The notes under the pieces: model-generated
Database searches by the model: none
What the model saw: the letters and a program-made list of their open reading frames with translations, nothing else
What the model was told of the DNA's origin: nothing
IMG/VR virus record: IMGVR_UViG_3300030329_003387
Direction: 5' to 3' (one strand)
DNA from: a virus
DNA length: 64,000 nt
Part shown: positions 23,044-39,970 of the stretch, in pieces
Numbering within the stretch: the stretch's first letter is position 1
How the letters are laid out: each line of letters opens with the position of its first letter
Program-made: the position numbers and the translations under genes

Positions 23044-25521
23044 CTAATCTGTAGTTCTATAACCTTGAGTATATAAAGTTGCATCCCAATTACCGCTGGA
23101 TTTTATGGAAGGAATAACTAGATCCATTGTTCCGCTAGATATGGTTCTCCCAACAGTTACCATGTCCGCACTATTATTAGTATTTACAATAGGCTTTCCA
23201 CTAAACCTTTTACCCTTAACCAAAAATTGTGGATCATCCGGCTGCATATATAGATTCATTGAATCATTATGTTTATACTCCGAAGGACCAAGTAAATATA
23301 GCTTTGTAGTATTGACCCCACTTTCCGTTGTCTTTACTGATAACGGCATAGTAGCTATAGGCTTCTTACCTTGAATAAACTGTGGAAAATTGATATTGAA
23401 TTTTGCAGGATCAATTTTAGGGAATGCTAGGTTCATTCCTACTTCTGCAACACCAGTAGGAGCTTCTGGTATTATCAAAAGGGGCATAGTTTTTTGTATG
23501 TATGGGTAAATATTTACGCCACCCTTAGTTTCTAAGTTCAAGTTATTATTTGCATAATAAACCTTACCGCCGATAAACAGCGTTTTTGTCATTTTTTCAA
23601 TAGCGCCGAGAAGACTTAAGTTCATGCTGTCATTAATTGTTACGCCAGCATTAGCACTAAGATAGCCATGACCTGTATCACCCATACTGGTTTTGGCATC
23701 TTGATTTATGACTAGCGGCATACTCTGTGTAGCTTTGTCAGTAAATACCGTTAATCTAAGATCGCCTGAAGCTTTCGCTTTCAAGCCGCCATCGACAAAC
23801 AATGGAAGGTCAACGCCATTTCCGGGAGATAAGGGATTTCCGGCAACGGTTAGTTGTCCATCAATATTGTTGTACTTGTTATATCTGTCAAACCCTGTGT
23901 ATCTTATCTTTGTTGAGTAAACTTTAAATTCAGCATCATATGGATGGTCGTACTCTGGGTAGAATACTGTAAGGTTAAGTTTATGTTCTCTAAAGTCTTC
24001 TCTAAAAGAATTTCCATTTTGATAGAAGTTGCTGACCCCATCTAATGGAGCTTCAAAGGTAATCTTTTGCTTTTCCCCAGAAGGAACCATAATCCCACTA
24101 GGAAACCAATTCAAACTTTTATATTTATTTATTAAAAGTTCATGTTCTTTATGCAATAACGCGGCTGAAAACTTAGCTCCACTTGGGTGATTTGTACTGT
24201 TCTCTACCCATACATCTACAGCAACGGTATCAAGTTGGTGGAAGGTAGGAGGTGTTTCTTCTATCCTAACACTTAGAACAGATGACACAGCGTAGTTTGA
24301 ATTGCCCCAAAGATTTGTGTCATAAGCTCCACCTAAAGCTTTTTCGCTATTACCTGAAGCTACAGTAAATTCAATATAGTCTTTGTCTTGAGCGTCAAAA
24401 GCCCCACTAAATAAACCAGCCTTAAAAGCAGCTCCGGTTGGCGCAGAATAACTTTTTATAATATCTGTAACGCCAAACGTATGATTATAAAACTTACTAA
24501 CCTCTTCGTCGCTAAAAGTCTTGTTACTAATACCTACTTCGTCTACCCATCCGGTATAACCACGTTCAGATATGGCAAACCCTCGTTTACCTAAAATTAT
24601 GTCAGTATTATCAGCTCCAGTTACGTCCCTGCTAAAAGTATTGGACTCACCTTCAATTTTACCGTTTACATAAATCTTTAATCTTGACTCGCCAGAAGCA
24701 AAAACTCCAACAACATGTGCTGGATATTTGTATTCTTGATAGTTCTTTGCTGACTTTGCTACAAAAGCTGTGTTAAGACCAGAAACGTTTCCATCAGAAC
24801 GTATGTAGAACTTGCCGTCAAAGTCACAGCCTAGAACAAATTTAGCTGGATTTTCTTTGTGCTGAGCGAGAATAACGGTATCACTTATATCGCCACTGGG
24901 TAATATTTTAGAGTAAACCGTAAAGCCCTTTGCGTCACTTAGACTGACGCCGCTACCTAAATTAACATTGGCTCTTTCAGAAAGGAATAGACATCTTTCT
25001 TGTATAGCTTCTCGACCTACTATACCTACGAGATCTCCGGCCTTTTGCCATACAGCAAAACCGTCTCCAGCAGAGTCTCCATCGGCAGTACCGGAAGAAC
25101 CACCACCAACACCTGCGGTACATGGGCCGGAAACAACACCACCCATATAACCAGCTCCGTCAGGTGGATCTGTACATCCACAAGTAGCGTCGTATGAATC
25201 AGGTTGATCTCCACATAGGTTTGAATATAAAAACCATTCAGCCCCATCCCACATCCAAGCGCAACCCTCTGGGTCACAACCCAGTCCACTGGCATTAGTG
25301 GATGTGCCTTTTTTAGACTTTACAACAGGAGAGCCAGAATACAGACCGCTACCCTCAAGAGGCATGTAAAGTTTATTAAACTTCCTTACAATCTCTTTAT
25401 TGTAACTCCCTCGCCAGTATCCGAATTCTCTGTTTACACCACTAGGAAATATTTCTCTTTCCTCTACGTGGGCAACACTTCCGAATATGACTAGGCCCAT
25501 ATTTCCTGAAGAAGCGGTCAT
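23044..25521 (-). CDS. Tail protein with LamG/concanavalin A-like lectin domain
   Basis: HVVGVF...LKIYVNG...IILGKR...YTGWVDEVGISNKTFSDEEVSKFYN; C-terminal MxL repeats. Confidence 0.7.
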   Translation of the reverse strand: MTASSGNMGLVIFGSVAHVEEREIFPSGVNREFGYWRGSYNKEIVRKFNKLYMPLEGSGLYSGSPVVKSKKGTSTNASGLGCDPEGCAWMWDGAEWFLYSNLCGDQPDSYDATCGCTDPPDGAGYMGGVVSGPCTAGVGGGSSGTADGDSAGDGFAVWQKAGDLVGIVGREAIQERCLFLSERANVNLGSGVSLSDAKGFTVYSKILPSGDISDTVILAQHKENPAKFVLGCDFDGKFYIRSDGNVSGLNTAFVAKSAKNYQEYKYPAHVVGVFASGESRLKIYVNGKIEGESNTFSRDVTGADNTDIILGKRGFAISERGYTGWVDEVGISNKTFSDEEVSKFYNHTFGVTDIIKSYSAPTGAAFKAGLFSGAFDAQDKDYIEFTVASGNSEKALGGAYDTNLWGNSNYAVSSVLSVRIEETPPTFHQLDTVAVDVWVENSTNHPSGAKFSAALLHKEHELLINKYKSLNWFPSGIMVPSGEKQKITFEAPLDGVSNFYQNGNSFREDFREHKLNLTVFYPEYDHPYDAEFKVYSTKIRYTGFDRYNKYNNIDGQLTVAGNPLSPGNGVDLPLFVDGGLKAKASGDLRLTVFTDKATQSMPLVINQDAKTSMGDTGHGYLSANAGVTINDSMNLSLLGAIEKMTKTLFIGGKVYYANNNLNLETKGGVNIYPYIQKTMPLLIIPEAPTGVAEVGMNLAFPKIDPAKFNINFPQFIQGKKPIATMPLSVKTTESGVNTTKLYLLGPSEYKHNDSMNLYMQPDDPQFLVKGKRFSGKPIVNTNNSADMVTVGRTISSGTMDLVIPSIKSSGNWDATLYTQGYRTTD

Positions 25522-25532
25522 TAATTATTCCT

Positions 25533-28500
25533 TTAGGCAGTCCCTTCTATATCCATTCTTGGCATATCTGGGAACTGTCTTTCTATGAAGCTATTAATTC
25601 CCCTACTAACTTCTCGTCTAATTTTTCTTTGCATTCCTCTGCTCATTTCTCCGTCATCAGTAGGCTCACCATTATGGTTCACACTTACTATAACGTTCAT
25701 GTCTTCAATTTTGTGCGACATTTGTATTCCGCCCTTGAATAATTCTTCAAGTCTCTTGACAGAGCTGTCAAATGAACCTACAGCGTCAGTAAAGGCGGAC
25801 GAATCTAATCTGTACATATTAGTTCCGCCTGTAACTTCACCCTCACCGCCACCAGCCAAGTAGTTGGTTCCTCTAGATTTTTTACTTCTATTGTTAGTAT
25901 GTCCAGCGCCCATGCTATTAATAGACTTGAGAGTTTCTATACCTACAGCATCTACAGCAGCTTTTCTTACAACAAACTCTCCCGGTGTTAACATTGCAGG
26001 AACTGTGTCTGTTCCCATAGCTGGACCACCAGTATTAAACAACGAAACAAAACCGCCTTTAGCATATCCTCTATTTTTAGCTTCTTTTTTGTAAAATTCA
26101 GCAAGTTCATCCTTTAGTTGGTTTCTAGATTTTCCACTTGGATTTTTACTGGCGGTGCGACTCTGACTCATTAAATGGTCGTAATGTCTAGTCAGAACTT
26201 CATTACCTTCTAAAACCTCATCAAGAAATTTTTGAGGTACACCTCTGTTTGAGAGGGTCTTTTTCACTCTCGATTGTTTCATAGCTATTTCTTTTTTAGC
26301 AGCTTCAAGAGCTTCTCGGCTACCATACACGTTATCCCAATCATGTATTGCTTTCGGTCCTGAGTCAGGTATCGCGTCTTGTTTCTTTAATTCATCTAGA
26401 GCTGCTCCTCCGCGAAGTTGCTCACCTTCCATTGCTAGCCTTTTGTTCATCGCTGCCTGTCTTCCGGGAGAGATAGGACGACCTGCATACTGTTCTTGTA
26501 CCTGTTTAAGTGTAGGTCTTGGTTCTTTCGGTCCTCTTGTCAGTTTCTGGGTTTTTCCAACAACAGCATTTGCCGGAGTGTAAGGTTTTTTACCCGGCTG
26601 CATAACAGCGTCTTTTGCTTCTACTCCTGTATCCATTCTTTCCATAGTTTGAGCAACTTTGATGTCTTCCAGCATTTTATTTGGAAGAACTTCTTTTCCT
26701 ACGGGAGAGACTTTCTCTTGCGTCTTACCTCGCGGACGATTCAACATATCTTGCTTTGTTACTGTCGGATTGAGATCTTCCATTGCTTGAGCTTCATTTC
26801 TTCTTCTTGCAAGGGCGCCTTCAGGATTTTCAGCTCCTCTTGTTTGAATTTGATCTCTAAAGTCTTTCTGGCCAGCTTTAAATTTGTTTAGATAATCTTC
26901 AGCTATAGCATTTTCTTCTGCTGCGTTCTTTGCAGCTGCTTCTGCTGCTTCTTCTGCTGCTTCTTTAGCTTCTTTTTGGTCCTTGTCAAAGTCTTTCCTC
27001 TTTTGCTCTAACTCCTTTGTCTTATCGCTTTTGCGCAAGAATTTATCTTGCGTTTTGCTTAATGCAATTTCTGCATCAAGTTTAGCTCGCTGTTCTGCTG
27101 GAGTCAGTTCACCTACTGATTGCTTTGCAGCATCATCTGCCTGTTTTGTAACTTGTGCCTGTCTTCTAGTTACAACCTGTATCGTGTCGTCTACTTGGTC
27201 AATTGCGGCAAGACTAAAAGTCTCTCCAGCTCCATATTTTCCAGCGGCTGCGGCTGCTGGTTTTGGAGTGGTTGCGGCTGCTGGTTTTGGAGTGGTTGCG
27301 GCTGCTGGTTTTGGCTTAACAGCTGTAACGGGTTTTTTAGGGACGGTATCGGCAGGAACTTTCCAGCGACCAACGGTGACAGCTTCTTTGGCCTGATTCA
27401 TTATATCGTCCGCTATTCCAAGCGCTTTTTGAGCAACTTCCTCAACTGTGTCCATTAAACTACCAACATTAAGAGAGCCGGGATGATTGAACATCTCTTC
27501 TTTTGCTTTTTGTAGCCAATCAATAGTGACTTCAGGATCACCTCCCGGTCTTTTTACCTTCTTAGCTTCAAGTTCTGCTAGTTTATTTTTACCTTGCTGT
27601 ATTCGCACTTCGTCTGCGGCACTAAACGCATTAGGCTTTGCTCCCTTCGGTACTTGACCCGGAGGAAGATTCTTTATCATCGCTTGTTTTTGTGCGGTGG
27701 TAAGAGTCGCGTCATTTATAATATCATCATAAGTTCTTGCAGCAAAACCTAGACCCGGCTTAGTTTCAAATGTTGTTTTTCCTTTACCGGGGATTATATC
27801 TGTATAGAAACTCGATTGTGGATCAAACGCGCCGAAATCACTTTTGTATGTTTTACCAGTTTCTGGATCGATGTATGTCTTTCTTGCTGGCCCTTGCCCA
27901 CGAGCTTCAACATAATTTCGCATGTCGGCAGTAATTGCCTCTGGCCTCTTCGGTATTTCAGGCGCGTCGGGTGTAAATTTACCACGATTGAGAGGATCAA
28001 ACGTTCCGGGTTCCATACCTTGAAGTAGATCATCAACTGCTGCGTCTGGTTTTACAGGACCTTTAGGTGCAGGTTTTGGTTTAGTCAATTCTCCTAAACC
28101 CGGCTTTTTACCAGTCAATATGTCCATCGAAGATTGACCTAGAAGTTTATTTACTTCTGCGCTGTGCCTAGCTTGCGTTGCTCTTTTCTGAGCCTGTTCT
28201 GCAATATCATTCGCAAACGACTTAGCTTTTTTAACAGTAGTACTGACGACATTTTTTGTTACTTTTGCGCCGACTTTACCTACTTTGCTTCCTGCCATTC
28301 CCGGAACAGCAACTTCGGCAAGGTCCAATATTCCCTGTCTGTCTTTGGCTTGTTGCTCAGTTAAACCGCCCTGCATAGCGCGTTCGACAAACTTATCTTC
28401 ATACTCTTCACCCGTAAATGTAGAGGTAAGAGCATCACCAAACCCCTGCAAACTAGCCATGAAGCCAGCTCTGTCATCCTCGCTAACAATAGCGGGTATC

Positions 28501-31500
28501 GCCTGCATTCCAGTTTGGATTAGGTTGGGGACGGCCATCATAGCGCCCTCTACAACATTAACACTCTTGCTTTGCTCAATACCTTCTCGTGTTATGTCTT
28601 TGACGCTGGCGCCTTCCTTAGCAAGATGTGTTGACCGAGCAACGAACGCATTGATAGAGTCTTCTGAATGACCAGCCTTACGCATTCTTTCAGCTTCATC
28701 AAGAACGGCATTTAATGCATGAGCTTCAATTTTTTCATCAATGAATTCTCCCATCATTCCCATGCCGCTCTTAAGAGCATCGCCAGTAAGGTCCCACGCC
28801 CCTAAAAGTATGTTGCCACCGATGTTGCCAGTTCTGTCAATATTTTCCTTCATATAGTCGCGTTTTTGAGTCTCGGTATCTACCTTACCCCTTGCGGCCA
28901 CGGCTGTACCCATCGTTCCCATCTGAGGATTAACTTTTACAACTTTTTCAAAATATTCTCTCCAAGGCTTTGCTGCTTGTAATATTTTTCTTTGACGATC
29001 AAACTCTGCTTTGTCATTACCCATTCCTGTTGGTAAATTCATAAGATTTGAATCTATTTCAGATGATTTCATCTGTCTCCACCAACTACCAGCTTGCGTT
29101 TCTATAATGTCAAGAACGCTCTTGTCTTGTAAGTTTACCGGCGGGGATTCATATGGGCTAATTATCCCATCTTTATCTATATCGCGAGGATCAAATGTAC
29201 CCCCAAAATGCTCATTAAGGGTTGCATAAGTAACAGGCTTTTCTGGAATTTCATAGGCTTTTGCTGCCGCAAGAAGTTTTTCATAGCTTGCATTAATAGC
29301 CTCTGCAAACTTTTGATCTTCTGTGCTAGAAGGGAACATTCCCATTTTTCCAAAATCTTCAACCTGCTTGCGTACTAAAGGATTATCAGGATCTACTGCG
29401 ATACCTTCAGTGGTTGCACTTTTTCCAACTTGACTTTCTTTATAACTTGTTCGTAACTTATAGTAAGCTTTACCTAATTTTTGTTGTTCAATAGCTGTGT
29501 ATTTTGCGTTTTCTTTGTCTACTCTAGCTCTTTCTTTTACATCTAAAGCATAAAGATCTTCCATAACATCCGTAGGAAGGACTGGGAAGGTTTCAATTTG
29601 TGTATTTCCCGGACCTTCTTTAGTAGATCTAAAGGTAAATGCATTTTCTATTTTTGAAGCTTTGCCGCGATAAACACCTTGGTTATAAGATTCTCTATGA
29701 GCAATAAAACTATCAAGAAGAATGTTCAAATCCTCTTCATTTTTTTCTGCTATATTTTTTTCTAGATCTGCTATTCTCTGACCAAAACTTCCTCTCAATC
29801 TGCTTTTAAATGGCGCTTTGTCTTGTATCATTTGATACCCAGCAGGACTTCTTTTAAATCCTTGTCCGGGTTGATAACTTGCGTATTGAGTAGCTAAAGC
29901 TCCGTCATCTCTTGCCGCTTGTAAAAATGCTCCATGATTAAATTGTGCTAAATAAGGTATGGCGTTGAGATTCGCAAAAACTTGCTTTTGATCTTTTTCT
30001 GATAATTGATGACTTACGTTACCTTGACTATCTACAAGAGGTGCGTCTTTGAACCTATCTTTATCCTTTCCAATCTCAAGATCGCCACTAGCTTCTAGAC
30101 TATCTAAAAGCTTATAGAGTGATCCGGCTTCTGTCATTGGTTGTATAAATCTAGCAGCCTTTTTTAAATCTTGTTCTGCAAAAAACTCAAGCATCCTTTT
30201 GTCTCTTGCGTAAGATTTTAGGTCGCCGGGAGCTTCACCTCTACCGTAAGTTTGTATCCATTGTTTAGAATGGTCTTTATCAGGAGGATTAAGTCTAGAC
30301 GGAGGCCAGTTTTTAATTGTTCGGTTATTTTCGTCTGGGTGACTTTCAGCATGTTCTTCAGCTTCAGCTAAGTATGCGCCAACAAGCCTCTTTGGATCTA
30401 CTAAACCACCTTCAGCTAAGTATTGAGTCTTGCCGCTATTGAGAGCTTGTAATGCTCCCATGTTTTTCTGAGCAGCTTTTCTATTAACAACAAACTCGCC
30501 GGGTGTTAGCATGGCCGGTACTGTATCTGTACCCTTTGGAGCAAATATAGTTCCACCATCAGCTTTAGTTACTGGCTTTACTTGGAACGGACGAGCGTTT
30601 TCTTTAAACTCTGCACTCCAACCTTTCCAAGCCATTGAGAAGCTCTCTTTTACTTGCTTCTGCATAAGACCTAAATGTCTTGCCACTGTTCCACCACCAA
30701 AGAACAGATCCATCATTTTTCGTTGACCTTCTTCAACTTTTCCATAACCCCATTCGTTAGCCGGTAAATTCGCCCAACCGTTAAGTCTGCCTATCAAACC
30801 ACGCTGGCCGATGAAAGTCATAGCTTTTTTAGGGTCTCCGGTGGTGTTACCGCCACCTAACAAACCTTGCATTGCGGCTATGCCTTGGTTTTTAGGGTTA
30901 GCTCCGGGTCCAACGGCTCCAGTTACGCCTTTTACACTAACGTCTCGTATTTTGCCTTTGGATTGGTGTACTGCATCCCAACCTAGACCTAACTGCTCAG
31001 AGATTCTCTCTTGATTAATTTTAAGACCACTAGCGTCCATTCCGTTAAGAAATCCGCCTCTAATCATGACTTGTAAATCATGACCAAGACCTTTAAAGAA
31101 TGGAAATACCATATGTGCGGTATTTTCATCAAATTCATAATTTTGCAGCCATCGTCTGTTAATACCTGCATATTTAGGCATTGCTGACTTAATTCTATTC
31201 TTCATCATAAAGTTGGTAACTTTATTCATATGGGAAGCAAGCCTGCTTCCGGTAAGAATAGGACTTTTCATAAACTTAAAGTTTTCATTTACGTCGTCTT
31301 TAAGTTCTTTGTTTGCTAGCGCGTCTTTTTCTTGCTGATCTTTTACAGCCTCCTGAGCATCTTCAACGTCTCCTGCGCCCATGCCCTGTATAGCTACCCC
31401 ACCAAAAAGTGCGGTTTGAAGTGCGTCAAGAGCTGTACCATATCCTGCGGAAGTATTGTTTGCCTTTATAAATTTATGGTAATTGACAAAAATTTCACGC

Positions 31501-34500
31501 ACGCGATCAATTTGTTTACTTCTTTCAGTTGCACCCGCTTGAATAGCCGCAACATCAGGGATTGACCCCCAACTGCTTGGGTTTGCCGGATTAAACTCAA
31601 AGCCCCTAAAAGAATTCGCTCCGAAACCTGTATCTATCAAATGTTTTTTAACACCACCTGCTATTTGTTTTAATCTACTTGTATATCCAGTTCCTGTGGT
31701 TTGTTCCCATATGTTTGTTCCTCCGCTCACAAAACCCCTGTACCAAGAATCTGGATGCATTTCTTTAACAACGTCGTCTATGACGTTTAAATTATTCCCA
31801 GACTTTAATGCTTCTTGAATTGCACCGACTTTTTTAGAAAGGTATGATCTAGCGGAAGTACCATAAAGTTCTGCAACGGCTTCTTGTTGGAGTTTATGGG
31901 CATCTTTAAAAGCTTGTAAGGGGCCTTTAACTTTTTCGCTGAAGGCAAGAGCTGTGTTAAGACTTCCAGCTACATCAAGATTTTTCCATGTACCAGAGGG
32001 GTAAGCAGCACTTAATAGAGTGCTTTTGTTCTTTTCGCTACTAAACCAGTCCTGTATTCGACTACGACTATAAACTTGACCAGTGTACGCAGGGAACAGC
32101 TCTATATATTGACCGCCTTGACCTCTAACGCCGGAGTTTTGCCCCACAAAACGTTCATGTTTAACAGCCTGCATCCATGCAGGACGAATCTCATAAGTAT
32201 TGTCTACGTTTTTTATAAACCTCCTCATTCGGTCAACTTTTACGTGTTCAGGACCGAAGTATTTTTCGTCTATCTCCTGCTTAAGTCTTACATAATCCCC
32301 ACCTGCGGAATTTAGTCTACCGCGATCACTAAAATCGACTTCACTACCTTCTGCTAAGAAATTTTGAGGGGTTGCAACTCCCATACCGTTAGCTTGTATT
32401 ATCTTTCTGTATGTTTCTCCATATTTTCTTGCATCAAAACCAGCAATTTGCTTGGTAAATGCATTCGCAGTTGGTCTCTGGAGATTTTGAGCCAAGTCAG
32501 GGATTGCTCGAAGGAATATAGGATTAGGCGCCCATCTTTCCAATCCAGCGCCAGTTAATCTGTAAGCCTGTTTGCCTATCTGATAAGAAGTGCCGCTATT
32601 CCAAGCGGAATTAAAACCCGGAGGAAAAGCAGTAAAATCTACGTCTTCTGAAAGGTACGAACCTTCGTATGATTTTTTGTCTTGGATGCCTGTGGTTATT
32701 TGGTTTCCGAGCTGATCTTTAGTACCCATAATAGCATTCCGAACAGACTCCTTTAACGCTCCAAAAGCGCCTTGCATAAATGGAGTATGATACTTGAGTA
32801 ACTGATCTTGTTTAATTGCAGCGGCAGGACCAACCCCATTAAACATTACGACTCCACCACCAGCCAAGTAGTTAGTTTTACCACTATTAATAGATTGGAG
32901 TGCGGCCATGTTTCTTTTTGCAGCTTTTTTATTAACTACAAATTCGCCGGGAGTTAACATGGCTGGAACAGTGTCTGTTCCTTTAGGCGCAAATACACTA
33001 CCACCAGTAGCAAATACAGGTACGTTGCCACCTGCGCCTCCAGCAGGTCCAGCGCCTCCAGCAGCAGCAGCACCAATTGCCGCCATATTAGCTGCTATAG
33101 AATTATTGGTCTTATTTATCGTTACTCCTAATCTAACTATATCGTCGCTTAGACTTTGCCAAGTTTCACCTTGAGGTATGTTAGCTAGTGACTGACTAAG
33201 AGCATCAAAGTTATTTACTAGCGTATCTGCAAATTGACCTATACCAGCAGAGTTAAGAGTACTCATGGCTTGATTAATAACGTCACCCTGAATATTCATC
33301 TGTTCCTGAGCAAACTGCGTGAGGGTTCTTTGTAAGAATGCTTGTACCTCACTAGCTGTCATAGGAGCTTGACCTTGTCCCTGACGACTCGCTATCTCAC
33401 CCGACAAAGCACTACGAAGTGAAGCGGCAATCTTATTTCCAACATCTACTCCAAAATTTCGTCTGAGATCTTTAGCTATATTGTTTATAGCGTTCTGATT
33501 TGCCGCTCCAGCTCCTCTACCCTCTACTGTGTCTGCGAACTGGTTGGGAGCAATTTGGTATTGTGCAGCCGCTGCAAATCTTTGACGAGTCTGTCTCGCT
33601 TCCCTTAACCCTCTAATGCTTTCTATATTGACTCTAATCGCATTAAGAACTCTAGGATCTTCTACAGGAAGTCCCATGCTTCTAATTTTTTGCAGCTCTT
33701 TAAATCCATTTTCAGCTGCTACTCTATTACCTTTAGCTTCAGACAGTTCTCTTTCTAAAGTTCTCTGTTCTTGTCTTAAAAAGATATTCTTTAGTTCGGT
33801 TGTGAGTTGCTTATGCAAACCAGCTATTGTTTTAGCAAGATCTTTTCTATCTTCTTTCATACCGACAAGTAAAGCCATCTGAGCTTGTTCAGCTTGCTTT
33901 TGTATCTTTATCTGCTCTTGAATTAAACGCTCTTGTTCTGAAGTAGCCCCCCTAATTGCCTTTTTCATTTCGTCGGGAAGAGGGCCAAACACACGTTCCA
34001 ATTCAGCAATGGTAAGTTCTGCCTTAGCTTGCTTTCCGGTCATTCCATTGAACATGGCAATTTCAGAGAACTGATCGAGAATGCTAAGAACTTGTGGTCG
34101 CATTTGATCCGGTATACGACCTAAACCGCCCTGCATAGCCATAGCGGTTGCTCGCATGGCTTTCATTATATCTACACGAGCTTCATTAGTGGCAAAAGCA
34201 AATTTTTCACCGGCACTAACTAATTGAGATCTTTTTAATTCTTCTTCGGCCAATCTCTCTGAGATAACAGCTAGTCTTTGTTGAACATTTGAATAGTTCT
34301 CAAGAACCATTTTTGTTTTTGCAAACTGTTCTTTTAATCTAGCATTTTCATCTAATAGCTTTTTCTGACTCTCAGTTAGCTGACCAGTAACTGCTGCTGG
34401 ATCAAGACCAAAACTTTCTAACTCAGCATTGCTCTTTCTAATTTTTTCTTTTAGTCTTATAAACTCTGTACTGACAACACCAATATTAGTACCAAATCCG

Positions 34501-37500
34501 GCAACAGCAGTTCCCGCTAACAAGAAGTTTTGTTGGGTAGCAAATGACTGTCCAGCAGCCTGTTCGTTAGCAGGTTGTTTTCTTAGTTTTCTAATTCTTT
34601 CAGCATTTTCATACTGTAGCTGAAGTATGTTTTGTTGTTGTTGAACAATCTTTAATTCAAGCTTTGTCCTAAGATCATAAGCTTTTGCAAGTCTAGCATT
34701 AGCTTTGTCAATAAACTCAGCAGCCCTTTGGAATGCTTGTTGAGTTTCAGACATACCTTTTGTAAGGTCTCTTACTACACCCTGTATGTCTTCTCTAATT
34801 CTACCGGCAAACTTACCTTCTCCGCCCTCTCCCATTTCAGCAGCTGCCTGAACGCGACGAACAATCATCTTTCTAAACTCATCGCCTATAATCCCTCCGG
34901 GATCAGCAGCCATCAATTTTGCTTCTATAATTTCAGAAGCTCTTGCTCCACCAATACCTATTTCACCGGCAGCTTCTGTTAGTATGTTAGGAAGAAGGGA
35001 ATTAAGGGCGGCAAACTGCTTTAAGTCCTTACCGAGCGCCACGCCTGAACTTCCTAAAGTAGCGGATATGTTATCTACATGTCGGTTAAAGGCGGAAAAA
35101 TCAAGTATGTTTGATATGTCATCAAAGTTTGGAGCTATTTTGCCTAGTGCGGCTTGGCCAAATGTGTTATTTATAGATTGTTCGGCATTTGTTAGGGCGT
35201 TATCAAAAGCAGTCAATCTATGTTCTATCGCAGCAAAAGCACTAACTGCATCTCTGGCTCCGTACAGAACTTTATTTAATTGTCTTATTGATTTTATTTG
35301 AGCTTCTTGAGCGGCTTTTGATCTTTTTCTTACTTCAACCCCATCTTGTATTTCTTTTTTCATCCTCTCTAAGCTAACGCCACTTAGTTCAGAGAAACTG
35401 TTTAACGTATCAGTTCCAACAATTTGTTCTAGTTCTGCAAAGCTATCTACGTTAGCTGCCATTCTATTTATAAAATCGGCAAATCCCGGAATTGATTTTT
35501 GAACCAGTCCATTAAACGATTCAAGTTCTTCAACTGTAGTAATTTCAGCAAACGATCTGTCAAGACGATCTATTCCGTCAGACACACTAGCAGCAATCGC
35601 TCGACCACTAGCTTTACCTTCAGTAAATAACTTTAACTTTCTTTCTACATCAGATAAAGCGTCTCCAAGCCGTAACGATCTTACTTTTGCATTAAAATTT
35701 ATCAAAGCTTCAGAAGCCGCACCCTCAGCATCTGCAAGCGCTCCTCCACTTACGCCACCTACTACGCCACCGATTATTCCCCCCGCTATAAGACCCGGAA
35801 TTCCGAAAACCTTTGCGCCTATAGCGCCGCCAGTAGCTGCGCCGCTCAATGCTCCCCATCCCGCACCTGTAGATTCAGCTTCTTGTGCTGCACCCTGCGT
35901 AACTCTAGCTCTAGCTTCTTCTGTAGCCGATTGTGTTTTATAACCTCCTGCCTCAACACTTTTCATGGCAAAATCCTGCATTTTTTTAGCAGCATTTTCC
36001 ATAGCTTTATGATACGCGAAGAAAGTTCCAGCAATAGCAGTAATACCAAGTACCTGACCGCCGCTTATTCCAATCTTACCGGCCATCTCTGTAAGTTTTT
36101 CACCAAACAACATGTGTGCGGCTGTAGCCATCATTAGAGTTTGGGTGAGGGCGTTCAGTCCCTCTTTCATCATATTGATTTCGCCATCAACTTCCTCGAT
36201 GTTTGCAGCAAACATTGGAAGTAGCATTTCTAAACCAAACATTAGACCTAAAGCTCTAGCAGAAGGGTCGGCTTTTCCACCTTCATTGAATTTTTGTACG
36301 CGAACTCCGCCTACAGCACCACCTTTAGCAAAGCCTCTAGGAGTTTCCCCAAATCTGTTAGCGCGATTTAGATTTCCGTAACCAATTCTTTGAGCGGACT
36401 TTCTGTTGATTACAAATTCGCCGGGAGTCAAGAGGGCAGGAACGGTATCACTACTTCTAGGCAATCCCCCTCCAGCATTTCGTCTTTTGCGAGGACGAGA
36501 AAAAATTGAAGCTTTGCCTATTTGTCTTTGTTGTTTTTTGTCAGCAGTTCCCGTGGGGTCATATTTTGCAGTTGTAAATTCTTTTTTGGATTTAGCTTCC
36601 CAAATATCTACTGAACCTAAATCTATAGTATCTCTTTTGCTAGTAAGCGCACCCTCTGGACCTACATCTTTAAGCTTTTTGGTTTTATCAGTGAGGTGTT
36701 GTCTAAGAGCTTTGTTTAGTATAGATTTAGTTCTTTCTCTTCCCCCTTTAAACTTAACTTCTCCATATTTTAAACCCTTTCCCTTGAGGTCCATAGGAGC
36801 ATTTCCGGGAATTAACTTCATTCTAGATTTTTTAGCTGCGACTGCTTCAAACATATCAGCAGAAGCTTTATTGTTTAAGGCTAGAGTTCCAAGAACTTGT
36901 TCTCGTTGAGCGCCTTTATACATCTTCTCAACATCAGCTCTAGAAATCTTATTCCTATTTACGATTCCTTTGACTTTATCACCGCCCTGTAATCCATCAA
37001 ATACACTCTTAGCGCGCTTAAACGGTTCATCAAAGCCCAATGTTTTAATTGAAGGCTTCTTCCTAGCCATTTGTTCGACAGTTCCGCCTGACGCGTACCT
37101 GTTCATCTTTCGTAATCTATCAGTTCCAATAGCTTTAACAGAACTTTTTCTTATTACAAATTCTCCGGGCGTTAGCATTGCCGGAACAGTATCTCTATTA
37201 CCCCTTCCGGGAACCATACCACCACTAGCAAATCTGTTAATTCTACCGCCCTGATTTCTACCTCTACCCATACCTCCAGCGAGGAAAGCAACACCTTTAG
37301 CAGCGGATAGAGCTGTCAACATAGGAATCATAGGGCCAAGAGTTTCTGCAACGGTAGCAAGAGCTTTAGCTAATTCCAAAGCCATCTTAACCATAGCTTG
37401 CATACCGCTAGAACCCATAAAGGTACGGAACAGAGCTTGGAACTCTTCTTTGACCTTAACAACCTGAACCGCAACAGATTGTTGTGCTTTGGCGGCATCT

Positions 37501-38597
37501 CTAGCTAAACTAGTACCGCCAGACTGCGCAACATTGAGAGCTTTTTGCGCAACGCCAAATTGTTGGATAAGAGGTATAACTTTAGAGACTTGCCTAAAAC
37601 CACCAAGCTGCTCAACTATTTGAGAATATCTAACATCTCTTGGGTCGAGATCTTTTAGGGCGATGTTTAATCTACGTACAGCTTCGTAAGGGCCTACAAA
37701 ATTTCCAGCAAGGTCTTGAAGTTCTACACCGACCTGTCTTAGAAATTGTATAGTTTTTGGACGTTGGATTCTGGTAAAGATAGTTCTAAAGCCGGTAGCA
37801 ATCGTTTCTGCCGTTTCACGAGTCGTAGAACGTACAGCAGTAAACATGGCCTCCAGTTCCATCAGTTGTCCACCCGCAGCCTTAAACGCGCCACCAGCAC
37901 GCCTAATAGCTACACCAATGTCTCCAGCCTCAACAGCGAAGTTTGCGGCTAAAGCATTAATTCTTCCAAGCTCACGTTCTAAGTTTGATGCTTCTATATT
38001 AAACTGTCGCATTGCAGCGATAGCAGTTTCTGTAGTAGAAGTAATATCATCAAAAGTAGCAGCGAGTGTGGTTTTAGCAAGTGCATCTAAAGATATTCTA
38101 ACTTCCCTTGCTGTCATACCAGTTTGGGCTAACACCCTACTAGTCTTCACAAGAGAACTAGAAGATACACCTAAAGAAGTAGATAGTGATGTTATTTCAC
38201 GCTCTAACCCCTTTAGTGAGTTCATGGTTTTGCCAGTAACTTGACTGACTTTTACCATTTCTCTTTCAAAAGCAATGGCAGAAGTTACACCATCACGAAT
38301 AGTATTTACAAAGGCATTAATGATCGAACGAGCTAAGTCATACTTCATTAAGTACGATAAAGCTCCTCTAAAGCTAGAACCCATTCTCTGGGCGCTTCTT
38401 CCAGCTGCTTTAGCATTGTTGCTAACGTTTTGTAAATTTTGACTAACTGTTTGAAGTTGGCTAGCCGTGCCTTTGGGCAAATTTACATTTACATTAGCGT
38501 TTACGCCTTTAAGCTGGTTGTTTATATTTCTAACTACATTTCTCATGTTTGGCGCTTGAATCGCCAGAGTTGAAGTTAGTACAAAACCTTTTGCCAT
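25533..38597 (-). CDS. Tape measure protein, 4354 aa, with five DTVPAMLTPGEF cassettes and cargo domains
   Basis: N-terminal TP901-type TMP core (AFEREMVKVSQVTG...LAQTG...ETIATGFRTIFTRI); TM/glycine-zipper segments; long coiled coil; lies after tube and chaperone genes. Confidence 0.9.
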   Translation of the reverse strand: MAKGFVLTSTLAIQAPNMRNVVRNINNQLKGVNANVNVNLPKGTASQLQTVSQNLQNVSNNAKAAGRSAQRMGSSFRGALSYLMKYDLARSIINAFVNTIRDGVTSAIAFEREMVKVSQVTGKTMNSLKGLEREITSLSTSLGVSSSSLVKTSRVLAQTGMTAREVRISLDALAKTTLAATFDDITSTTETAIAAMRQFNIEASNLERELGRINALAANFAVEAGDIGVAIRRAGGAFKAAGGQLMELEAMFTAVRSTTRETAETIATGFRTIFTRIQRPKTIQFLRQVGVELQDLAGNFVGPYEAVRRLNIALKDLDPRDVRYSQIVEQLGGFRQVSKVIPLIQQFGVAQKALNVAQSGGTSLARDAAKAQQSVAVQVVKVKEEFQALFRTFMGSSGMQAMVKMALELAKALATVAETLGPMIPMLTALSAAKGVAFLAGGMGRGRNQGGRINRFASGGMVPGRGNRDTVPAMLTPGEFVIRKSSVKAIGTDRLRKMNRYASGGTVEQMARKKPSIKTLGFDEPFKRAKSVFDGLQGGDKVKGIVNRNKISRADVEKMYKGAQREQVLGTLALNNKASADMFEAVAAKKSRMKLIPGNAPMDLKGKGLKYGEVKFKGGRERTKSILNKALRQHLTDKTKKLKDVGPEGALTSKRDTIDLGSVDIWEAKSKKEFTTAKYDPTGTADKKQQRQIGKASIFSRPRKRRNAGGGLPRSSDTVPALLTPGEFVINRKSAQRIGYGNLNRANRFGETPRGFAKGGAVGGVRVQKFNEGGKADPSARALGLMFGLEMLLPMFAANIEEVDGEINMMKEGLNALTQTLMMATAAHMLFGEKLTEMAGKIGISGGQVLGITAIAGTFFAYHKAMENAAKKMQDFAMKSVEAGGYKTQSATEEARARVTQGAAQEAESTGAGWGALSGAATGGAIGAKVFGIPGLIAGGIIGGVVGGVSGGALADAEGAASEALINFNAKVRSLRLGDALSDVERKLKLFTEGKASGRAIAASVSDGIDRLDRSFAEITTVEELESFNGLVQKSIPGFADFINRMAANVDSFAELEQIVGTDTLNSFSELSGVSLERMKKEIQDGVEVRKRSKAAQEAQIKSIRQLNKVLYGARDAVSAFAAIEHRLTAFDNALTNAEQSINNTFGQAALGKIAPNFDDISNILDFSAFNRHVDNISATLGSSGVALGKDLKQFAALNSLLPNILTEAAGEIGIGGARASEIIEAKLMAADPGGIIGDEFRKMIVRRVQAAAEMGEGGEGKFAGRIREDIQGVVRDLTKGMSETQQAFQRAAEFIDKANARLAKAYDLRTKLELKIVQQQQNILQLQYENAERIRKLRKQPANEQAAGQSFATQQNFLLAGTAVAGFGTNIGVVSTEFIRLKEKIRKSNAELESFGLDPAAVTGQLTESQKKLLDENARLKEQFAKTKMVLENYSNVQQRLAVISERLAEEELKRSQLVSAGEKFAFATNEARVDIMKAMRATAMAMQGGLGRIPDQMRPQVLSILDQFSEIAMFNGMTGKQAKAELTIAELERVFGPLPDEMKKAIRGATSEQERLIQEQIKIQKQAEQAQMALLVGMKEDRKDLAKTIAGLHKQLTTELKNIFLRQEQRTLERELSEAKGNRVAAENGFKELQKIRSMGLPVEDPRVLNAIRVNIESIRGLREARQTRQRFAAAAQYQIAPNQFADTVEGRGAGAANQNAINNIAKDLRRNFGVDVGNKIAASLRSALSGEIASRQGQGQAPMTASEVQAFLQRTLTQFAQEQMNIQGDVINQAMSTLNSAGIGQFADTLVNNFDALSQSLANIPQGETWQSLSDDIVRLGVTINKTNNSIAANMAAIGAAAAGGAGPAGGAGGNVPVFATGGSVFAPKGTDTVPAMLTPGEFVVNKKAAKRNMAALQSINSGKTNYLAGGGVVMFNGVGPAAAIKQDQLLKYHTPFMQGAFGALKESVRNAIMGTKDQLGNQITTGIQDKKSYEGSYLSEDVDFTAFPPGFNSAWNSGTSYQIGKQAYRLTGAGLERWAPNPIFLRAIPDLAQNLQRPTANAFTKQIAGFDARKYGETYRKIIQANGMGVATPQNFLAEGSEVDFSDRGRLNSAGGDYVRLKQEIDEKYFGPEHVKVDRMRRFIKNVDNTYEIRPAWMQAVKHERFVGQNSGVRGQGGQYIELFPAYTGQVYSRSRIQDWFSSEKNKSTLLSAAYPSGTWKNLDVAGSLNTALAFSEKVKGPLQAFKDAHKLQQEAVAELYGTSARSYLSKKVGAIQEALKSGNNLNVIDDVVKEMHPDSWYRGFVSGGTNIWEQTTGTGYTSRLKQIAGGVKKHLIDTGFGANSFRGFEFNPANPSSWGSIPDVAAIQAGATERSKQIDRVREIFVNYHKFIKANNTSAGYGTALDALQTALFGGVAIQGMGAGDVEDAQEAVKDQQEKDALANKELKDDVNENFKFMKSPILTGSRLASHMNKVTNFMMKNRIKSAMPKYAGINRRWLQNYEFDENTAHMVFPFFKGLGHDLQVMIRGGFLNGMDASGLKINQERISEQLGLGWDAVHQSKGKIRDVSVKGVTGAVGPGANPKNQGIAAMQGLLGGGNTTGDPKKAMTFIGQRGLIGRLNGWANLPANEWGYGKVEEGQRKMMDLFFGGGTVARHLGLMQKQVKESFSMAWKGWSAEFKENARPFQVKPVTKADGGTIFAPKGTDTVPAMLTPGEFVVNRKAAQKNMGALQALNSGKTQYLAEGGLVDPKRLVGAYLAEAEEHAESHPDENNRTIKNWPPSRLNPPDKDHSKQWIQTYGRGEAPGDLKSYARDKRMLEFFAEQDLKKAARFIQPMTEAGSLYKLLDSLEASGDLEIGKDKDRFKDAPLVDSQGNVSHQLSEKDQKQVFANLNAIPYLAQFNHGAFLQAARDDGALATQYASYQPGQGFKRSPAGYQMIQDKAPFKSRLRGSFGQRIADLEKNIAEKNEEDLNILLDSFIAHRESYNQGVYRGKASKIENAFTFRSTKEGPGNTQIETFPVLPTDVMEDLYALDVKERARVDKENAKYTAIEQQKLGKAYYKLRTSYKESQVGKSATTEGIAVDPDNPLVRKQVEDFGKMGMFPSSTEDQKFAEAINASYEKLLAAAKAYEIPEKPVTYATLNEHFGGTFDPRDIDKDGIISPYESPPVNLQDKSVLDIIETQAGSWWRQMKSSEIDSNLMNLPTGMGNDKAEFDRQRKILQAAKPWREYFEKVVKVNPQMGTMGTAVAARGKVDTETQKRDYMKENIDRTGNIGGNILLGAWDLTGDALKSGMGMMGEFIDEKIEAHALNAVLDEAERMRKAGHSEDSINAFVARSTHLAKEGASVKDITREGIEQSKSVNVVEGAMMAVPNLIQTGMQAIPAIVSEDDRAGFMASLQGFGDALTSTFTGEEYEDKFVERAMQGGLTEQQAKDRQGILDLAEVAVPGMAGSKVGKVGAKVTKNVVSTTVKKAKSFANDIAEQAQKRATQARHSAEVNKLLGQSSMDILTGKKPGLGELTKPKPAPKGPVKPDAAVDDLLQGMEPGTFDPLNRGKFTPDAPEIPKRPEAITADMRNYVEARGQGPARKTYIDPETGKTYKSDFGAFDPQSSFYTDIIPGKGKTTFETKPGLGFAARTYDDIINDATLTTAQKQAMIKNLPPGQVPKGAKPNAFSAADEVRIQQGKNKLAELEAKKVKRPGGDPEVTIDWLQKAKEEMFNHPGSLNVGSLMDTVEEVAQKALGIADDIMNQAKEAVTVGRWKVPADTVPKKPVTAVKPKPAAATTPKPAAATTPKPAAAAAGKYGAGETFSLAAIDQVDDTIQVVTRRQAQVTKQADDAAKQSVGELTPAEQRAKLDAEIALSKTQDKFLRKSDKTKELEQKRKDFDKDQKEAKEAAEEAAEAAAKNAAEENAIAEDYLNKFKAGQKDFRDQIQTRGAENPEGALARRRNEAQAMEDLNPTVTKQDMLNRPRGKTQEKVSPVGKEVLPNKMLEDIKVAQTMERMDTGVEAKDAVMQPGKKPYTPANAVVGKTQKLTRGPKEPRPTLKQVQEQYAGRPISPGRQAAMNKRLAMEGEQLRGGAALDELKKQDAIPDSGPKAIHDWDNVYGSREALEAAKKEIAMKQSRVKKTLSNRGVPQKFLDEVLEGNEVLTRHYDHLMSQSRTASKNPSGKSRNQLKDELAEFYKKEAKNRGYAKGGFVSLFNTGGPAMGTDTVPAMLTPGEFVVRKAAVDAVGIETLKSINSMGAGHTNNRSKKSRGTNYLAGGGEGEVTGGTNMYRLDSSAFTDAVGSFDSSVKRLEELFKGGIQMSHKIEDMNVIVSVNHNGEPTDDGEMSRGMQRKIRREVSRGINSFIERQFPDMPRMDIEGTA
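25845..26066 (-). repeat. TMP cassette 5 (YAKGG/FNTGG...DTVPAMLTPGEF...YLAGG)
   Basis: Read from the translation; lies about 100 aa from the C-terminus. Confidence 0.9.
27249..27314 (+). repeat. 24-bp tandem repeat, 2.75 copies (encodes PKPAAATT linker in TMP)
   Basis: tgcggctgctggttttggagtggt repeated exactly. Confidence 0.9.
30405..30566 (-). repeat. TMP cassette 4 (KADGG...DTVPAMLTPGEF...YLAEGG)
   Basis: Read from the translation; nearly identical to cassette 3. Confidence 0.9.
32853..33014 (-). repeat. TMP cassette 3 (FATGG...DTVPAMLTPGEF...YLAGG)
   Basis: Read from the translation. Confidence 0.9.
36318..36480 (-). repeat. TMP cassette 2 (NAGGG...DTVPALLTPGEF...FAKGG)
   Basis: Read from the translation. 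Confidence 0.9.
37083..37232 (-). repeat. TMP cassette 1 (FASGG...DTVPAMLTPGEF...YASGG)
   Basis: Read from the translation. Confidence 0.9.
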
Positions 38598-39582: not shown

Positions 39583-39970
39583 CTTCTTCTCCTTGGTTAA
39601 TTTCAGGTTCCGTCGTGACTGGCTTTACAGGTAATGTCATCCTGTATCTAAGCCAGCTTATGTCATAGTTTGTAAATTCAGCTTCCAAATTTCTTATCTG
39701 ATTATTGCCTCGATCTAATATCTCAGCTCTAACCTCGTCAAATTGCTCTTTCATGTGAGTCTGCTCAGGAGTTAATTCTCCATTGCCTTCATGACCCCAC
39801 AAAAAGCCAAAATACTTTTCAATAGTGCTTAAAGCACCAATCATAGTAGTTTGTATTTTCTTTTGAGAAATTTTTAAGAGTCTATCTTTTGATACCTCTT
39901 TATACTTCTCGTCTCTTGTTGATTTGAATTTTTCTGATTTTCTAACCAGTTCATTATAATTTTCATCCAT
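39557..39970 (-). CDS. Hypothetical helical protein in tail-chaperone cluster
   Basis: Overlaps both neighbours; plausible protein composition. Confidence 0.55.
   Translation of the reverse strand: MDENYNELVRKSEKFKSTRDEKYKEVSKDRLLKISQKKIQTTMIGALSTIEKYFGFLWGHEGNGELTPEQTHMKEQFDEVRAEILDRGNNQIRNLEAEFTNYDISWLRYRMTLPVKPVTTEPEINQGEEDGQKQEEN

Follow-up and report, generated by a model that had tools for sequence, protein, structure and literature searches.

The gene at positions 25533..38597 (minus strand) of the 64,000-nucleotide stretch analysed here (the window) encodes a protein of 4,354 aa (472 kDa) that is an intact tape measure protein (TMP) of the TP901 type. The phage it comes from is marine, long-tailed and uncultured, and the protein itself belongs to a family of giant modular TMPs that is very large and known mostly from uncultured phages. 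The protein contains five copies of a ~55-aa module, [FY]AxGG...DTVPA[ML]LTPGEFV...helix...GG, which by its sequence is the element found beside the maturation cut of the lambda TMP, gpH, and for which Pfam and NCBIfam have no model. Two conserved ruler units, three fast-evolving inserts and a conserved C-terminal end are arranged around these modules, and the first insert carries a catalytic-type signature.

The tape measure gene and its conserved parts

The preliminary description of this DNA had given one reading frame of 4354 aa, and the gene is indeed a single open frame from end to end. PF10145 (PhageMin_Tail) matched the N-terminus, spanning aa 134-333, with 90 bits against a cutoff of 33 (E 2.4e-25, Pfam), and TIGR01760 (tape_meas_TP901) scored 100 bits against a cutoff of 29 (E 1.4e-28); TMP PHROGs also matched, at aa 1550-1934. 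Tape_meas_lam_C (PF09718) and the Pfam peptidase families gave no match in the protein at E<=1, and the T5 TMP_C family (Pfam) was not detected in it. No near-identical phage was found in GenBank; the identical protein was recorded on 24 contigs, which come from several sources and reach 151 kb, a finding that rules out an assembly chimera.

The TMP gene lies between a weak tube match and two positional chaperones upstream and a LamG-like tail protein downstream, in an order common to relatives. The two overlapping ORFs located just upstream (137 and 304 aa; 38668..39970, minus strand) are assigned to the tail assembly chaperone place by position only; family searches gave no match for either, and the same pair is found beside the TMP in relatives. 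The 305-aa product of 41143..42060 (minus strand) is a probable tail tube protein, with a weak match to phrog_290 (5e-6) and one to Pfam Phage_tube_2 (0.0055) that is below the cutoff. Directly downstream, 23044..25521 (minus strand) codes for an 825-aa protein with a LamG-like lectin domain (Pfam Laminin_G_3, 2.6e-11); this probable distal tail or tip protein is kept as a TMP neighbour in relatives.

Three parts of the chain are well conserved. The N-terminal ruler unit (aa 1-448; 37254..38597, minus strand), which has a hydrophobic and then Gly-rich stretch at its end (aa 420-454), shows 60-73% identity in close relatives and was matched in 231 of 246 giant TMPs. The second ruler unit (aa 771-1860; 33018..36287, minus strand) is collinear in close relatives, with 37-50% identity, and was matched in 77 proteins; helix-forming residues make up 52% of it, hydropathy indicates two membrane-like hydrophobic stretches (aa 782-800 and 924-942), and its end is Ala/Gly-rich. 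The C-terminal 104 aa (25536..25847, minus strand) are 40-61% identical in five close relatives and 33% in a sixth; their similarity to the end of lambda gpH is not significant. The tail tip is the probable docking site of this end, by analogy with the structures of lambda, T5, JBD30 and Douge. The segments bracketed by modules diverge much faster among relatives than these three parts, while keeping their lengths; the earlier view that they are unlike the N-terminus and the interval between the second and third modules is thus supported by their rate of evolution.

The repeated module and its distribution

The five cassettes reported in the preliminary description were confirmed, and our own limits agree with the earlier ones within a few codons; the lengths given earlier for the enclosed segments also hold (194, 762 and 1,446 aa). 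A profile built from the five copies scores each of them at 86-93 bits: module 1 at 37065..37235 (aa 455-511; 88 bits), module 2 at 36288..36482 (aa 706-770; 86 bits), module 3 at 32856..33017 (aa 1861-1914; 93 bits), module 4 at 30408..30569 (aa 2677-2730; 91 bits) and module 5 at 25848..26069 (aa 4177-4250; 86 bits), all on the minus strand. There are exactly five instances of the core, DTVPA[ML]LTPGEFV (aa 469, 717, 1875, 2691 and 4197). The full set of gpH-type features (aromatic-A-x-GG, 6-12 residues, a GEFV strand, an amphipathic helix ending in N, and a second GG) was likewise found five times, and [FYW]xxGG occurs 12 times in the TMP, 10 of them at module edges, against 2.5 +/- 1.6 in shuffled sequences. 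Module 1 represents a “first-slot” subtype, conserved throughout the family, module 2 has an extra FAKGG / FNEGG tail, and module 5, a “last-slot” subtype, ends 104 aa before the C-terminus; a hydrophobic/Gly-rich stretch precedes modules 1 and 3.

Conservation of the module is stronger than that of the ruler itself: in a close variant with 93% identity, only one of the 54 residues of module 3 is changed. Modules 3 and 4 are 76% identical at the protein level and differ at silent sites; more generally, the differences among the five DNA copies are mostly at silent third positions, with no long identical run. The silent-site differences, together with the preserved peptide, indicate that the module is conserved by selection and was not recently copied. 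Across proteins the modules cluster by slot, first modules grouping with first modules in 109 of 115 cases; this clustering marks the copies as orthologues specific to each slot, and not as recent duplicates. A recent duplication giving modules 3 and 4 was considered and rejected on the same grounds.

A survey of phage TMPs with a cassette profile, as suggested in the preliminary description, revealed that giant TMPs with several copies of the module form a very large family: 18,586 protein clusters contain the module, multi-copy clusters among them number at least 1,100, the highest copy count is 11, and 1,100 module-bearing clusters have E<=1e-30. The long relatives scored were 521; among 257 giant TMPs copy number follows protein length (r = 0.81), with the start of the first module near residue 511 and the end of the last one a median of 133 aa before the C-terminus. 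Ordinary TMPs can also carry the module: lambda gpH has one at 733-784 (profile 733-781, E 7e-9), a separate element from Tape_meas_lam_C, which covers gpH 627-701, upstream of it; gp46 of Pseudomonas phage JBD30 has one at 1017-1068 and gp16 of mycobacteriophage Douge has two, at 964-1010 and 1412-1457; two hits were also obtained in Gordonia phages. For JBD30, its authors predicted that the region 1022-1066 forms a small hook, in which two helices are combined with a beta-hairpin and which would anchor the TMP in the baseplate (PMC11445458; PDB 8RK3); the module is unseen in both the JBD30 and the Douge (PDB 8ZDO; PMC13033339) maps. The Nodularia phage vB_NpeS-2AV2 (NC_048637), a ~139-kb aquatic siphovirus, has a giant TMP with two clear modules; differently from the present protein, they are in tandem (985-1117), there is no PhageMin_Tail match, and the two TMPs are not close relatives.

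The variable inserts

Insert 1-2 (aa 512-705; 36483..37064, minus strand) is a basic segment of 194 aa with a PD-(D/E)xK-like domain. Its putative active-site stretch (36702..36848, minus strand) comprises E584, P601-x-D603, E613-x-K615, K629 and R632. In an alignment of 37 sequences with no more than 17-24% overall identity, every sequence has E584 and D603, 97% have E613, 89% P601 and 81% K615, and K629 and R632 fall within a range of 81-100%; the signature was also recovered in the A5 and A6 alignments. A further alignment (A4), made with whole giant proteins, misplaced the insert and was discarded, and loci cut out of the proteins were used instead. Since E...PD...ExK is the active-site pattern of PD-(D/E)xK nucleases, this motif suggests that insert 1-2 is a nuclease-like domain. 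Iterative searches recovered its family in about 35 of the 257 giant TMPs, and each time it immediately follows module 1; a search for stand-alone relatives found none, and the family is seen, so far, only inside TMPs. Eight members gave no Pfam match at E<=10, and comparison with the sequences of solved structures returned nothing relevant. An aromatic-x-x-GG motif also closes this domain in relatives that have no full second module.

Insert 3-4 (aa 1915-2676; 30570..32855, minus strand) has 762 aa and is Gly-rich and aromatic-rich, with 10% aromatic residues. It is collinear with its relatives at only ~22% identity, and in a close variant 10.6% of its residues are changed, versus 4.7% in the ruler part; scattered Trp, Tyr, Pro and Gly residues are invariant, as is typical of a fold. 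Its profile returned nothing relevant from the sequences of solved structures, and ESM Atlas scores were 0.79 or less, hence uninformative. Insert 4-5 (aa 2731-4176; 26070..30407, minus strand), of 1,446 aa, is charged and partly of low complexity, and only its first ~800 aa are collinear with relatives, at 22-25% identity. An EF-hand-like loop and a Pro/Thr/Ala linker are present in this insert, and the linker shows length polymorphism.

Among relatives the lengths of the two long inserts are maintained (764-857 aa for 3-4 and 1,379-1,584 aa for 4-5), while their sequences have diverged almost beyond detection. Iterative searches among the 257 giant TMPs retrieved the closest clade only, or nothing, and when aa 1913-4176 were used to look for relatives that are shorter or stand alone, a fragment from a near-identical phage was all that was retrieved; the whole 4,354-aa protein also gave nothing relevant against the sequences of solved structures. 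No known domain was found in these other 2,200 aa of insert, so that insert 1-2 is the only enzyme-like segment; from their pattern of divergence, inserts 3-4 and 4-5 may not be functional domains but spacer under low constraint. The “cargo domains” of the preliminary description are therefore retained at best for insert 1-2, with its PD-(D/E)xK signature, whereas 3-4 and 4-5 lack a domain, a stand-alone relative and a confident fold.

Modelling of each segment by AlphaFold2, also suggested earlier, was performed for the first two inserts with their flanking modules, and both models were unusable: module 1 + insert 1-2 + module 2 (8 sequences) had a mean pLDDT of 43 and module 3 + insert 3-4 + module 4 (5 sequences) one of 36. 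In the former, low-confidence model the order helix, strand, strand, helix around the motif would fit the alpha-beta-beta-beta-alpha-beta core of PD-(D/E)xK nucleases, and Foldseek with the same unreliable model returned nothing below E = 1.

Tail length, and possible cutting and delivery

TMPs are textbook rulers which also open the path for DNA. To our knowledge, only those of lambda and T5 are known to be cut, and delivery of a cut-off enzyme by a TMP is proven for T5 pb2 only. Lambda gpH resembles the present TMP in its module (FATGG...GEFV...YATGG), in the hydrophobic/Gly-rich stretch before it and in the short tip-docking end after it, but it has one module in 853 aa, no inserts and an N-terminus of the TMP_2 family. 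It is ejected to form a channel and is cut near the module after tail assembly, losing a ~14-kDa C-terminal piece and giving matured gpH* and gpHC (PMC12617516; PDB 8IYK); the single module and the C-terminal loss given in the preliminary description are thus correct. Judged by the mass of the products, the cut falls at roughly residues 710-737, on the N-terminal side of the module and close to it. In T5, pb2 likewise has a hydrophobic stretch and an anchor, then a mapped cut after R1127 yielding pb2* and pb2C (PMC10038345), and finally a small enzyme piece that is kept in the tail, its presumed destination on expulsion being the periplasm (PMC10038345). T5 differs in having a single cut and an enzyme with a cell-wall hydrolase motif; the AEGG...GEHGTEVV sequence after its cut only loosely resembles the module, and its match to the module profile is not significant.

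On these bases, we propose that the whole TMP chain would thread the tail tube and set a very long tail, and that the domains embedded in it, including the PD-(D/E)xK-like one after module 1, would travel with the chain. The two conserved ruler units (aa 1-448 and 771-1860) each end, as in lambda gpH, with a hydrophobic/Gly-rich stretch followed by a module; each of the three fast-evolving inserts is closed by another module, and the conserved C-terminal end would dock in the tail tip. By analogy with lambda, a cut beside the last module is likely, and cuts at the internal modules are possible. The earlier idea that the cassettes bracket the released fragments is not supported; the positions of the lambda and T5 cuts imply fragments that would begin with a module and not be flanked by two. 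Gene fission at module borders was considered as a sign of cutting and set aside; a single broken relative, in three frames, was found, which looks like damage or a sequencing error.

An extension of this proposal is the full polyprotein model of the preliminary description, in which every module would be a processing site, placed as in lambda and T5: having first measured a tail of more than 600 nm, the ruler would be divided into five or six fragments, inside the tube after assembly or else on ejection, and its three variable fragments would be effectors released into the host at infection; we hold this as a tentative and rather unlikely reading. In its favour, the only two TMPs proven to be cut are cut beside the module or a look-alike, the T5 cut frees an enzyme piece, and the JBD30 authors speculate on a cut at the module end; furthermore, the variable inserts sit exactly between modules, one of them has the catalytic-type signature, and aromatic-x-x-GG still closes that domain where the second module is incomplete. 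Against it, Pfam searches for protease, JAB, NlpC/P60, metallopeptidase and prohead protease domains found none in the TMP or in the ~45 window ORFs scanned, where the only hit was to an S74 chaperone, itself self-cleaving, in a fibre gene; a protease may lie elsewhere in the ~151-kb genome. The T5 look-alike, in addition, falls short of significance. Moreover, two of the three supposed cargo segments have no domain, fold or stand-alone relative, and the Douge TMP, with two internal modules, is described in the paper on its structure as a single trimeric chain running through the tail tube, and its length fits the tail.

Should the internal modules be cut, the tail lumen would hold a swappable payload: at infection the pieces would enter the host before the DNA, and the fast-evolving ones, the nuclease-like included, would serve as effectors that can be exchanged. 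More than a thousand lineages of uncultured phages would then have, in the tail lumen, an equivalent of the head-packaged polyvalent proteins. These are giant polypeptides of phages and conjugative elements that are delivered with the DNA, have several activities and are processed into units (Iyer et al. 2017, PMC5512222). Polyvalent proteins, typically packaged in the head, have many known effector domains and their own metallopeptidase, and tape measures are absent from that study; the present TMP has one enzyme-like domain only and no detected peptidase domain. The small and extremely conserved module also raises the questions of what cuts gpH, and of what besides DNA enters the host first.

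That the modules are instead purely structural joints of an uncut ruler, contacting for instance the tube lumen, chaperones or the tip at intervals, with the inserts as spacers selected for length alone and the nuclease-like motif as a relic, appears quite improbable. The conserved lengths and diverged sequences of the inserts, and the charged, partly low-complexity insert 4-5 with its polymorphic linker, agree with spacers, and the tails of Douge, JBD30 and 2AV2 scale with the whole TMP length. A relic, however, would not keep E584 and D603 at 100%, and the other residues at 81-100%, across 37 sequences; insert 3-4 keeps its invariant Trp, Tyr, Pro and Gly, and the module is stricter than the ruler, beyond the need of a spacer joint. 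If the modules do remain uncut, the family would show how repeated-unit rulers with embedded enzymes serve tails of 600 nm and more.

In cultured module-bearing phages tail length fits or exceeds the whole TMP: Douge has a TMP of 1,699 aa and a tail of 270 nm (269.6 nm), 2AV2 one of 3,404 aa and a tail of 795 nm, and the ratio in JBD30 and Douge is ~0.155-0.16 nm per residue. For the present protein, the estimates of ~650 nm from the full length and ~230 nm from the tape-like parts, given in the preliminary description, are arithmetically right (653 nm and 230 nm). Their proposed use, by which a tail matching all the residues would speak against processing, discriminates poorly; lambda cuts gpH after the tail is built, hence a ruler that measures at full length can still be processed afterwards.

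It is highly improbable that the repeats are DNA recombination anchors for swapping inserts, with no role at the protein level: inserts do differ among relatives with similar flanks, and in the relatives P0003 and P0005 the 1,500-aa inserts are unrelated apart from a 162-aa island with 75% identity, but the five copies keep the peptide while differing silently and have no long identical DNA run, they are slot-specific and not homogenised, and lambda, JBD30 and other ordinary TMPs have a single copy and thus no recombination partner.

For the giant modular tape measure proposed here, with domains that would travel along with the chain, similar cases are the TMPs of mycobacteriophage TM4, SPbeta (YomI) and the Brevundimonas phage Kikimora, which have an enzyme domain built into the ruler and delivered together with it. 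The Kikimora TMP (2,340 aa) combines a lysozyme domain at 1206-1295 with a module at 2005-2059. The domains in these three proteins are known lysins aimed at the cell wall, whereas the recognisable insert of the present TMP is nuclease-like.

The giant tape measure gene and its surroundings

On the minus strand of the window, a single unbroken frame (25533-38597; 4,354 codons, 472 kDa) codes for the tape measure protein (TMP), whose residues 134-333 match the Pfam family PhageMin_Tail (E 2.4e-25) and residues 95-429 the NCBI TP901-type tape measure model (E 1.4e-28); several tape-measure PHROGs match the protein too. Upstream of the gene there are an ORF with a weak match to a tail tube protein and, where tail chaperones would be expected, a pair of overlapping ORFs; downstream a LamG-domain protein is followed by more large tail proteins; this tail gene order is common to the closest relatives on other contigs. 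An identical TMP is recorded on 24 contigs from several collections, including Tara, the longest contig being 151 kb, and no GenBank phage is close to this one. At the sequence level, the frame, the family matches, the gene order and the 24-contig record indicate a real gene of an uncultured marine phage.

The tail module also comprises a second giant ORF (5327-14929; 3,200 aa), which, like its neighbours of 1,399, 671 and 621 aa, has no Pfam match. Elsewhere in the window, the ORF at 58190-58594 has a strong hit (2.9e-40) to PF23140, a family of podophage GP4 fibre proteins, the one at 60046-60558 has a hit (5e-9) to PF22758, a capsid cement protein, and a methyltransferase and a WavE-like glycosyltransferase (50415-51779) are contained within the structural module.

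The repeated module

A 13-residue core, DTVPA[ML]LTPGEFV, is present in exactly five copies, at residues 469, 717, 1875, 2691 and 4197. Each belongs to a module of about 55-75 residues (modules 1-5: aa 455-511, 706-770, 1861-1914, 2677-2730 and 4177-4250), formed by an aromatic-A-x-GG, a short loop, the GEFV strand, an amphipathic helix with a final N and a second GG; the profile built from the five scores 86-93 bits with each copy. Aromatic-x-x-GG occurs 12 times in the TMP, with 2.5 expected, and ten of these occurrences are at module edges. Module coordinates, segment sizes and arithmetic in the preliminary description were all correct on recheck. The five copies differ as DNA mainly at silent third positions; hence the repeat is maintained by selection on the peptide and did not arise by recent duplication. 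Pfam and NCBIfam report nothing on any of the copies, and the module is uncatalogued in both. Two extra aromatic-x-x-GG "mini-joints" devoid of the GEFV core, GFVSGG (31719-31736; aa 2288-2293) and LFFGGG (30690-30707; aa 2631-2636), are found between modules 3 and 4.

A word-based search returned 521 long relatives (2,394-7,620 aa); nearly all of the 120 among the matches listed have the same N-terminal domain. The module profile, searched against 1.84 billion cluster representatives, reached E<=1e-3 with 18,586 clusters and E<=1e-30 with 1,100, the latter value being attainable only with more than one copy; in a 7,794-aa protein up to 11 stretches match. The survey of copy number bore out the multiplication of the module: the 257 giant TMPs compared carry 2 to 10 each, or roughly one for every 790 aa, with more in longer TMPs (r = 0.81); the first begins near residue 511 and the last ends a median of 133 aa before the C-terminus. 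In 120 sampled TMPs, the nearest relative of a module in other TMPs occupied the same kind of slot, that is, ordinal place, for 109 of 115 first-slot, 260 of 315 internal-slot and 86 of 121 last-slot modules. It follows that the array is old and that every slot is under its own constraint, without homogenisation by within-gene recombination. In the literature searched, no paper describes an iterated module in TMPs.

Conserved ruler units and divergent inserts

The N-terminal unit (aa 1-448) shares 60-73% identity with the closest relatives, the second ruler unit (aa 771-1860) 37-50%, and the C-terminal end (aa 4251-4354) 40-61%, with 33% in one of them. As for the inserts, named after the modules enclosing them, insert 1-2 (aa 512-705) has no match in the closest relatives, insert 3-4 (aa 1915-2676) is collinear at about 22% identity, and insert 4-5 (aa 2731-4176) shows 22-25% over its first ~800 residues and none beyond. 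Despite this divergence, insert lengths are kept among relatives (764-857 and 1,379-1,584 aa). The gradient recurs at short range in a variant fragment of 93% identity, where 4.7% of the ruler-part residues, 1.9% of those of module 3 and 10.6% of those of insert 3-4 are changed. The sole common part of the ~1,500-aa inserts of two relatives is a 162-aa island at 75% identity, which points to mosaic exchange. Both conserved units consist of helix-rich tape and a hydrophobic or Ala/Gly-rich stretch, followed by a module, and look like a lambda-type ruler as far as its module. Two membrane-like stretches are located at aa 782-800 and 924-942, in the second unit.

The preliminary description regarded the three inserts as cargo; an enzyme-like motif was found in insert 1-2, and nothing domain-like in the other two. 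By iterative search, the insert 1-2 family was detected in some 35 of the 257 giant TMPs; it invariably comes right behind the first module, and it is absent from the closest relatives. In a 37-sequence alignment, with only 17-24% identity overall, E584 and D603 are invariant, and P601, E613, K615, K629 and R632 are each kept in 81-100%. The E...PD...ExK pattern is that of the PD-(D/E)xK nuclease fold, from which we infer a nuclease-like domain. No match was obtained in Pfam models, solved structures or stand-alone proteins; AlphaFold2 gave a low-confidence model (pLDDT 43), whose helix and strand order around the motif fits the nuclease fold. In relatives, the domain has an aromatic-x-x-GG end even in the absence of a complete second module behind it. 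In the close relative P0008 (L006:1-1100; JGI 3300056735) the TMP gene is broken within this slot: the N-terminal part ends 8 residues past module 1, the insert goes on in another frame, where it is 42% identical to the insert of a further relative, and the last 3,722 aa, read in a third frame, begin about 70 aa ahead of module 2. Possible explanations are decay of the insert, a sequencing error or a genuine split gene.

Insert 3-4 is high in aromatic residues and glycine, with scattered invariant Trp, Tyr, Pro and Gly; it contains no recognisable domain, and its structure model is unusable (pLDDT 36). Insert 4-5 is charged, in part of low complexity, and has no relatives beyond its own clade. 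It includes a Pro/Thr/Ala-rich linker, KPKPAAATTPKPAAATTPKPAAAAAG (27240-27317; aa 3761-3786), with an 8-residue indel, which looks like repeat slippage, between two records of this TMP (P0001 and P0002) that are otherwise 100% identical, and an EF-hand-like calcium loop, DIDKDGIISPYE (29148-29183; aa 3139-3150). Several distant giant TMPs have Pfam EF-hand matches, with none above threshold in this TMP.

Known tails, processing and delivery

In lambda gpH the single module mentioned in the preliminary description was confirmed by a profile match at 733-784, with a hydrophobic, Gly-rich stretch before it. The Pfam model Tape_meas_lam_C covers gpH (locus L001) 627-701, upstream of this GG...GEFV...GG module; therefore, Pfam has no model for what is most conserved in the C-terminal region of gpH. 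A ~14-kDa C-terminal piece, gpHC, is removed from gpH after tail assembly, and residues 818-849, the last resolved, are bound to gpI in the tail tip (PMC12617516); published masses place the cut roughly at residues 710-737, just before or at the module start. Among proteins of solved structure, the profile also matches JBD30 gp46 (1017-1068) and Douge gp16 (964-1010 and 1412-1457); the module is invisible in the maps of lambda, JBD30 and Douge. The JBD30 authors predicted that residues 1022-1066 fold into two helices and a beta-hairpin, making a hook, and speculated that, once the chain is cut at 1066, this hook serves as the TMP's anchor in the baseplate (PMC11445458). The T5 cut, mapped by mass spectrometry after R1127, separates a hydrophobic stretch from a small enzyme piece, which is kept in the tail and presumably released into the periplasm (PMC10038345). 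The T5 sequence past the cut, AEGG...GEHGTEVV, resembles by eye the module start; its match to the module profile is not significant, and it is therefore counted as a lead only.

Tail length, proposed earlier as a means to tell an intact TMP from a processed one, does not discriminate, the tails of module-bearing cultured phages fitting or exceeding the whole TMP: the tail or tube measures 180 nm for the 1,158 aa of JBD30 (0.155 nm per residue) and 269.6 nm for the 1,699 aa of Douge, with its two internal modules (0.159). The Nodularia phage vB_NpeS-2AV2 (TMP gene at L015:6046-16260; two tandem modules at 985-1117) reaches a reported 795 nm with 3,404 aa; its 0.234 nm per residue far exceeds the customary 0.15, which implies a chain stretched beyond the length of a helix or a further protein that adds to the length. 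In lambda, gpH is cut only once the tube is complete (PMC12617516); therefore, full-length measuring and later processing are compatible. A tail of at least 650 nm, compatible with TMP processing, is plausible for this phage; tails as long as 875 nm have been recorded.

The TMP is probably a modular giant ruler, in which iterated hook-type modules would connect conserved ruler and membrane units with fast-evolving inserts. By analogy with lambda, T5 and other phages, the chain would occupy the tube and leave it ahead of the DNA, so that the embedded domains would reach the envelope or the cytoplasm; cleavage at the last module, as in lambda, is likely. TMPs with embedded lysins, maturation by a single cut and giant "polyvalent" proteins that are injected are already known; what appears new, relative to the papers searched, is an uncatalogued gpH-type module that is iterated and partitions giant TMPs, together with a nuclease-like family in the first slot that was found in TMPs only.

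A cut at each module with release of effectors, as first proposed, would agree with the only proven TMP cuts, which adjoin this module or its look-alike, and with the liberation of an enzyme in T5; however, it seems rather unlikely, as no protease was found in the TMP or in about 45 ORFs scanned in the window, two of the three "cargo" segments lack anything domain-like, and the two-module TMP of Douge is treated in its structure paper as a single chain along the tail tube. That modules and inserts are purely joints and spacers is still less probable and fits poorly with the invariant catalytic-type residues of insert 1-2. A role of the repeats solely as DNA recombination anchors conflicts with both the silent-site differences and the slot specificity, and is very improbable.

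The sole peptidase-type domain found in the window is a C-terminal Peptidase_S74 intramolecular chaperone (E 4e-14), carried by a 757-aa self-cleaving fibre protein (46730-49003).
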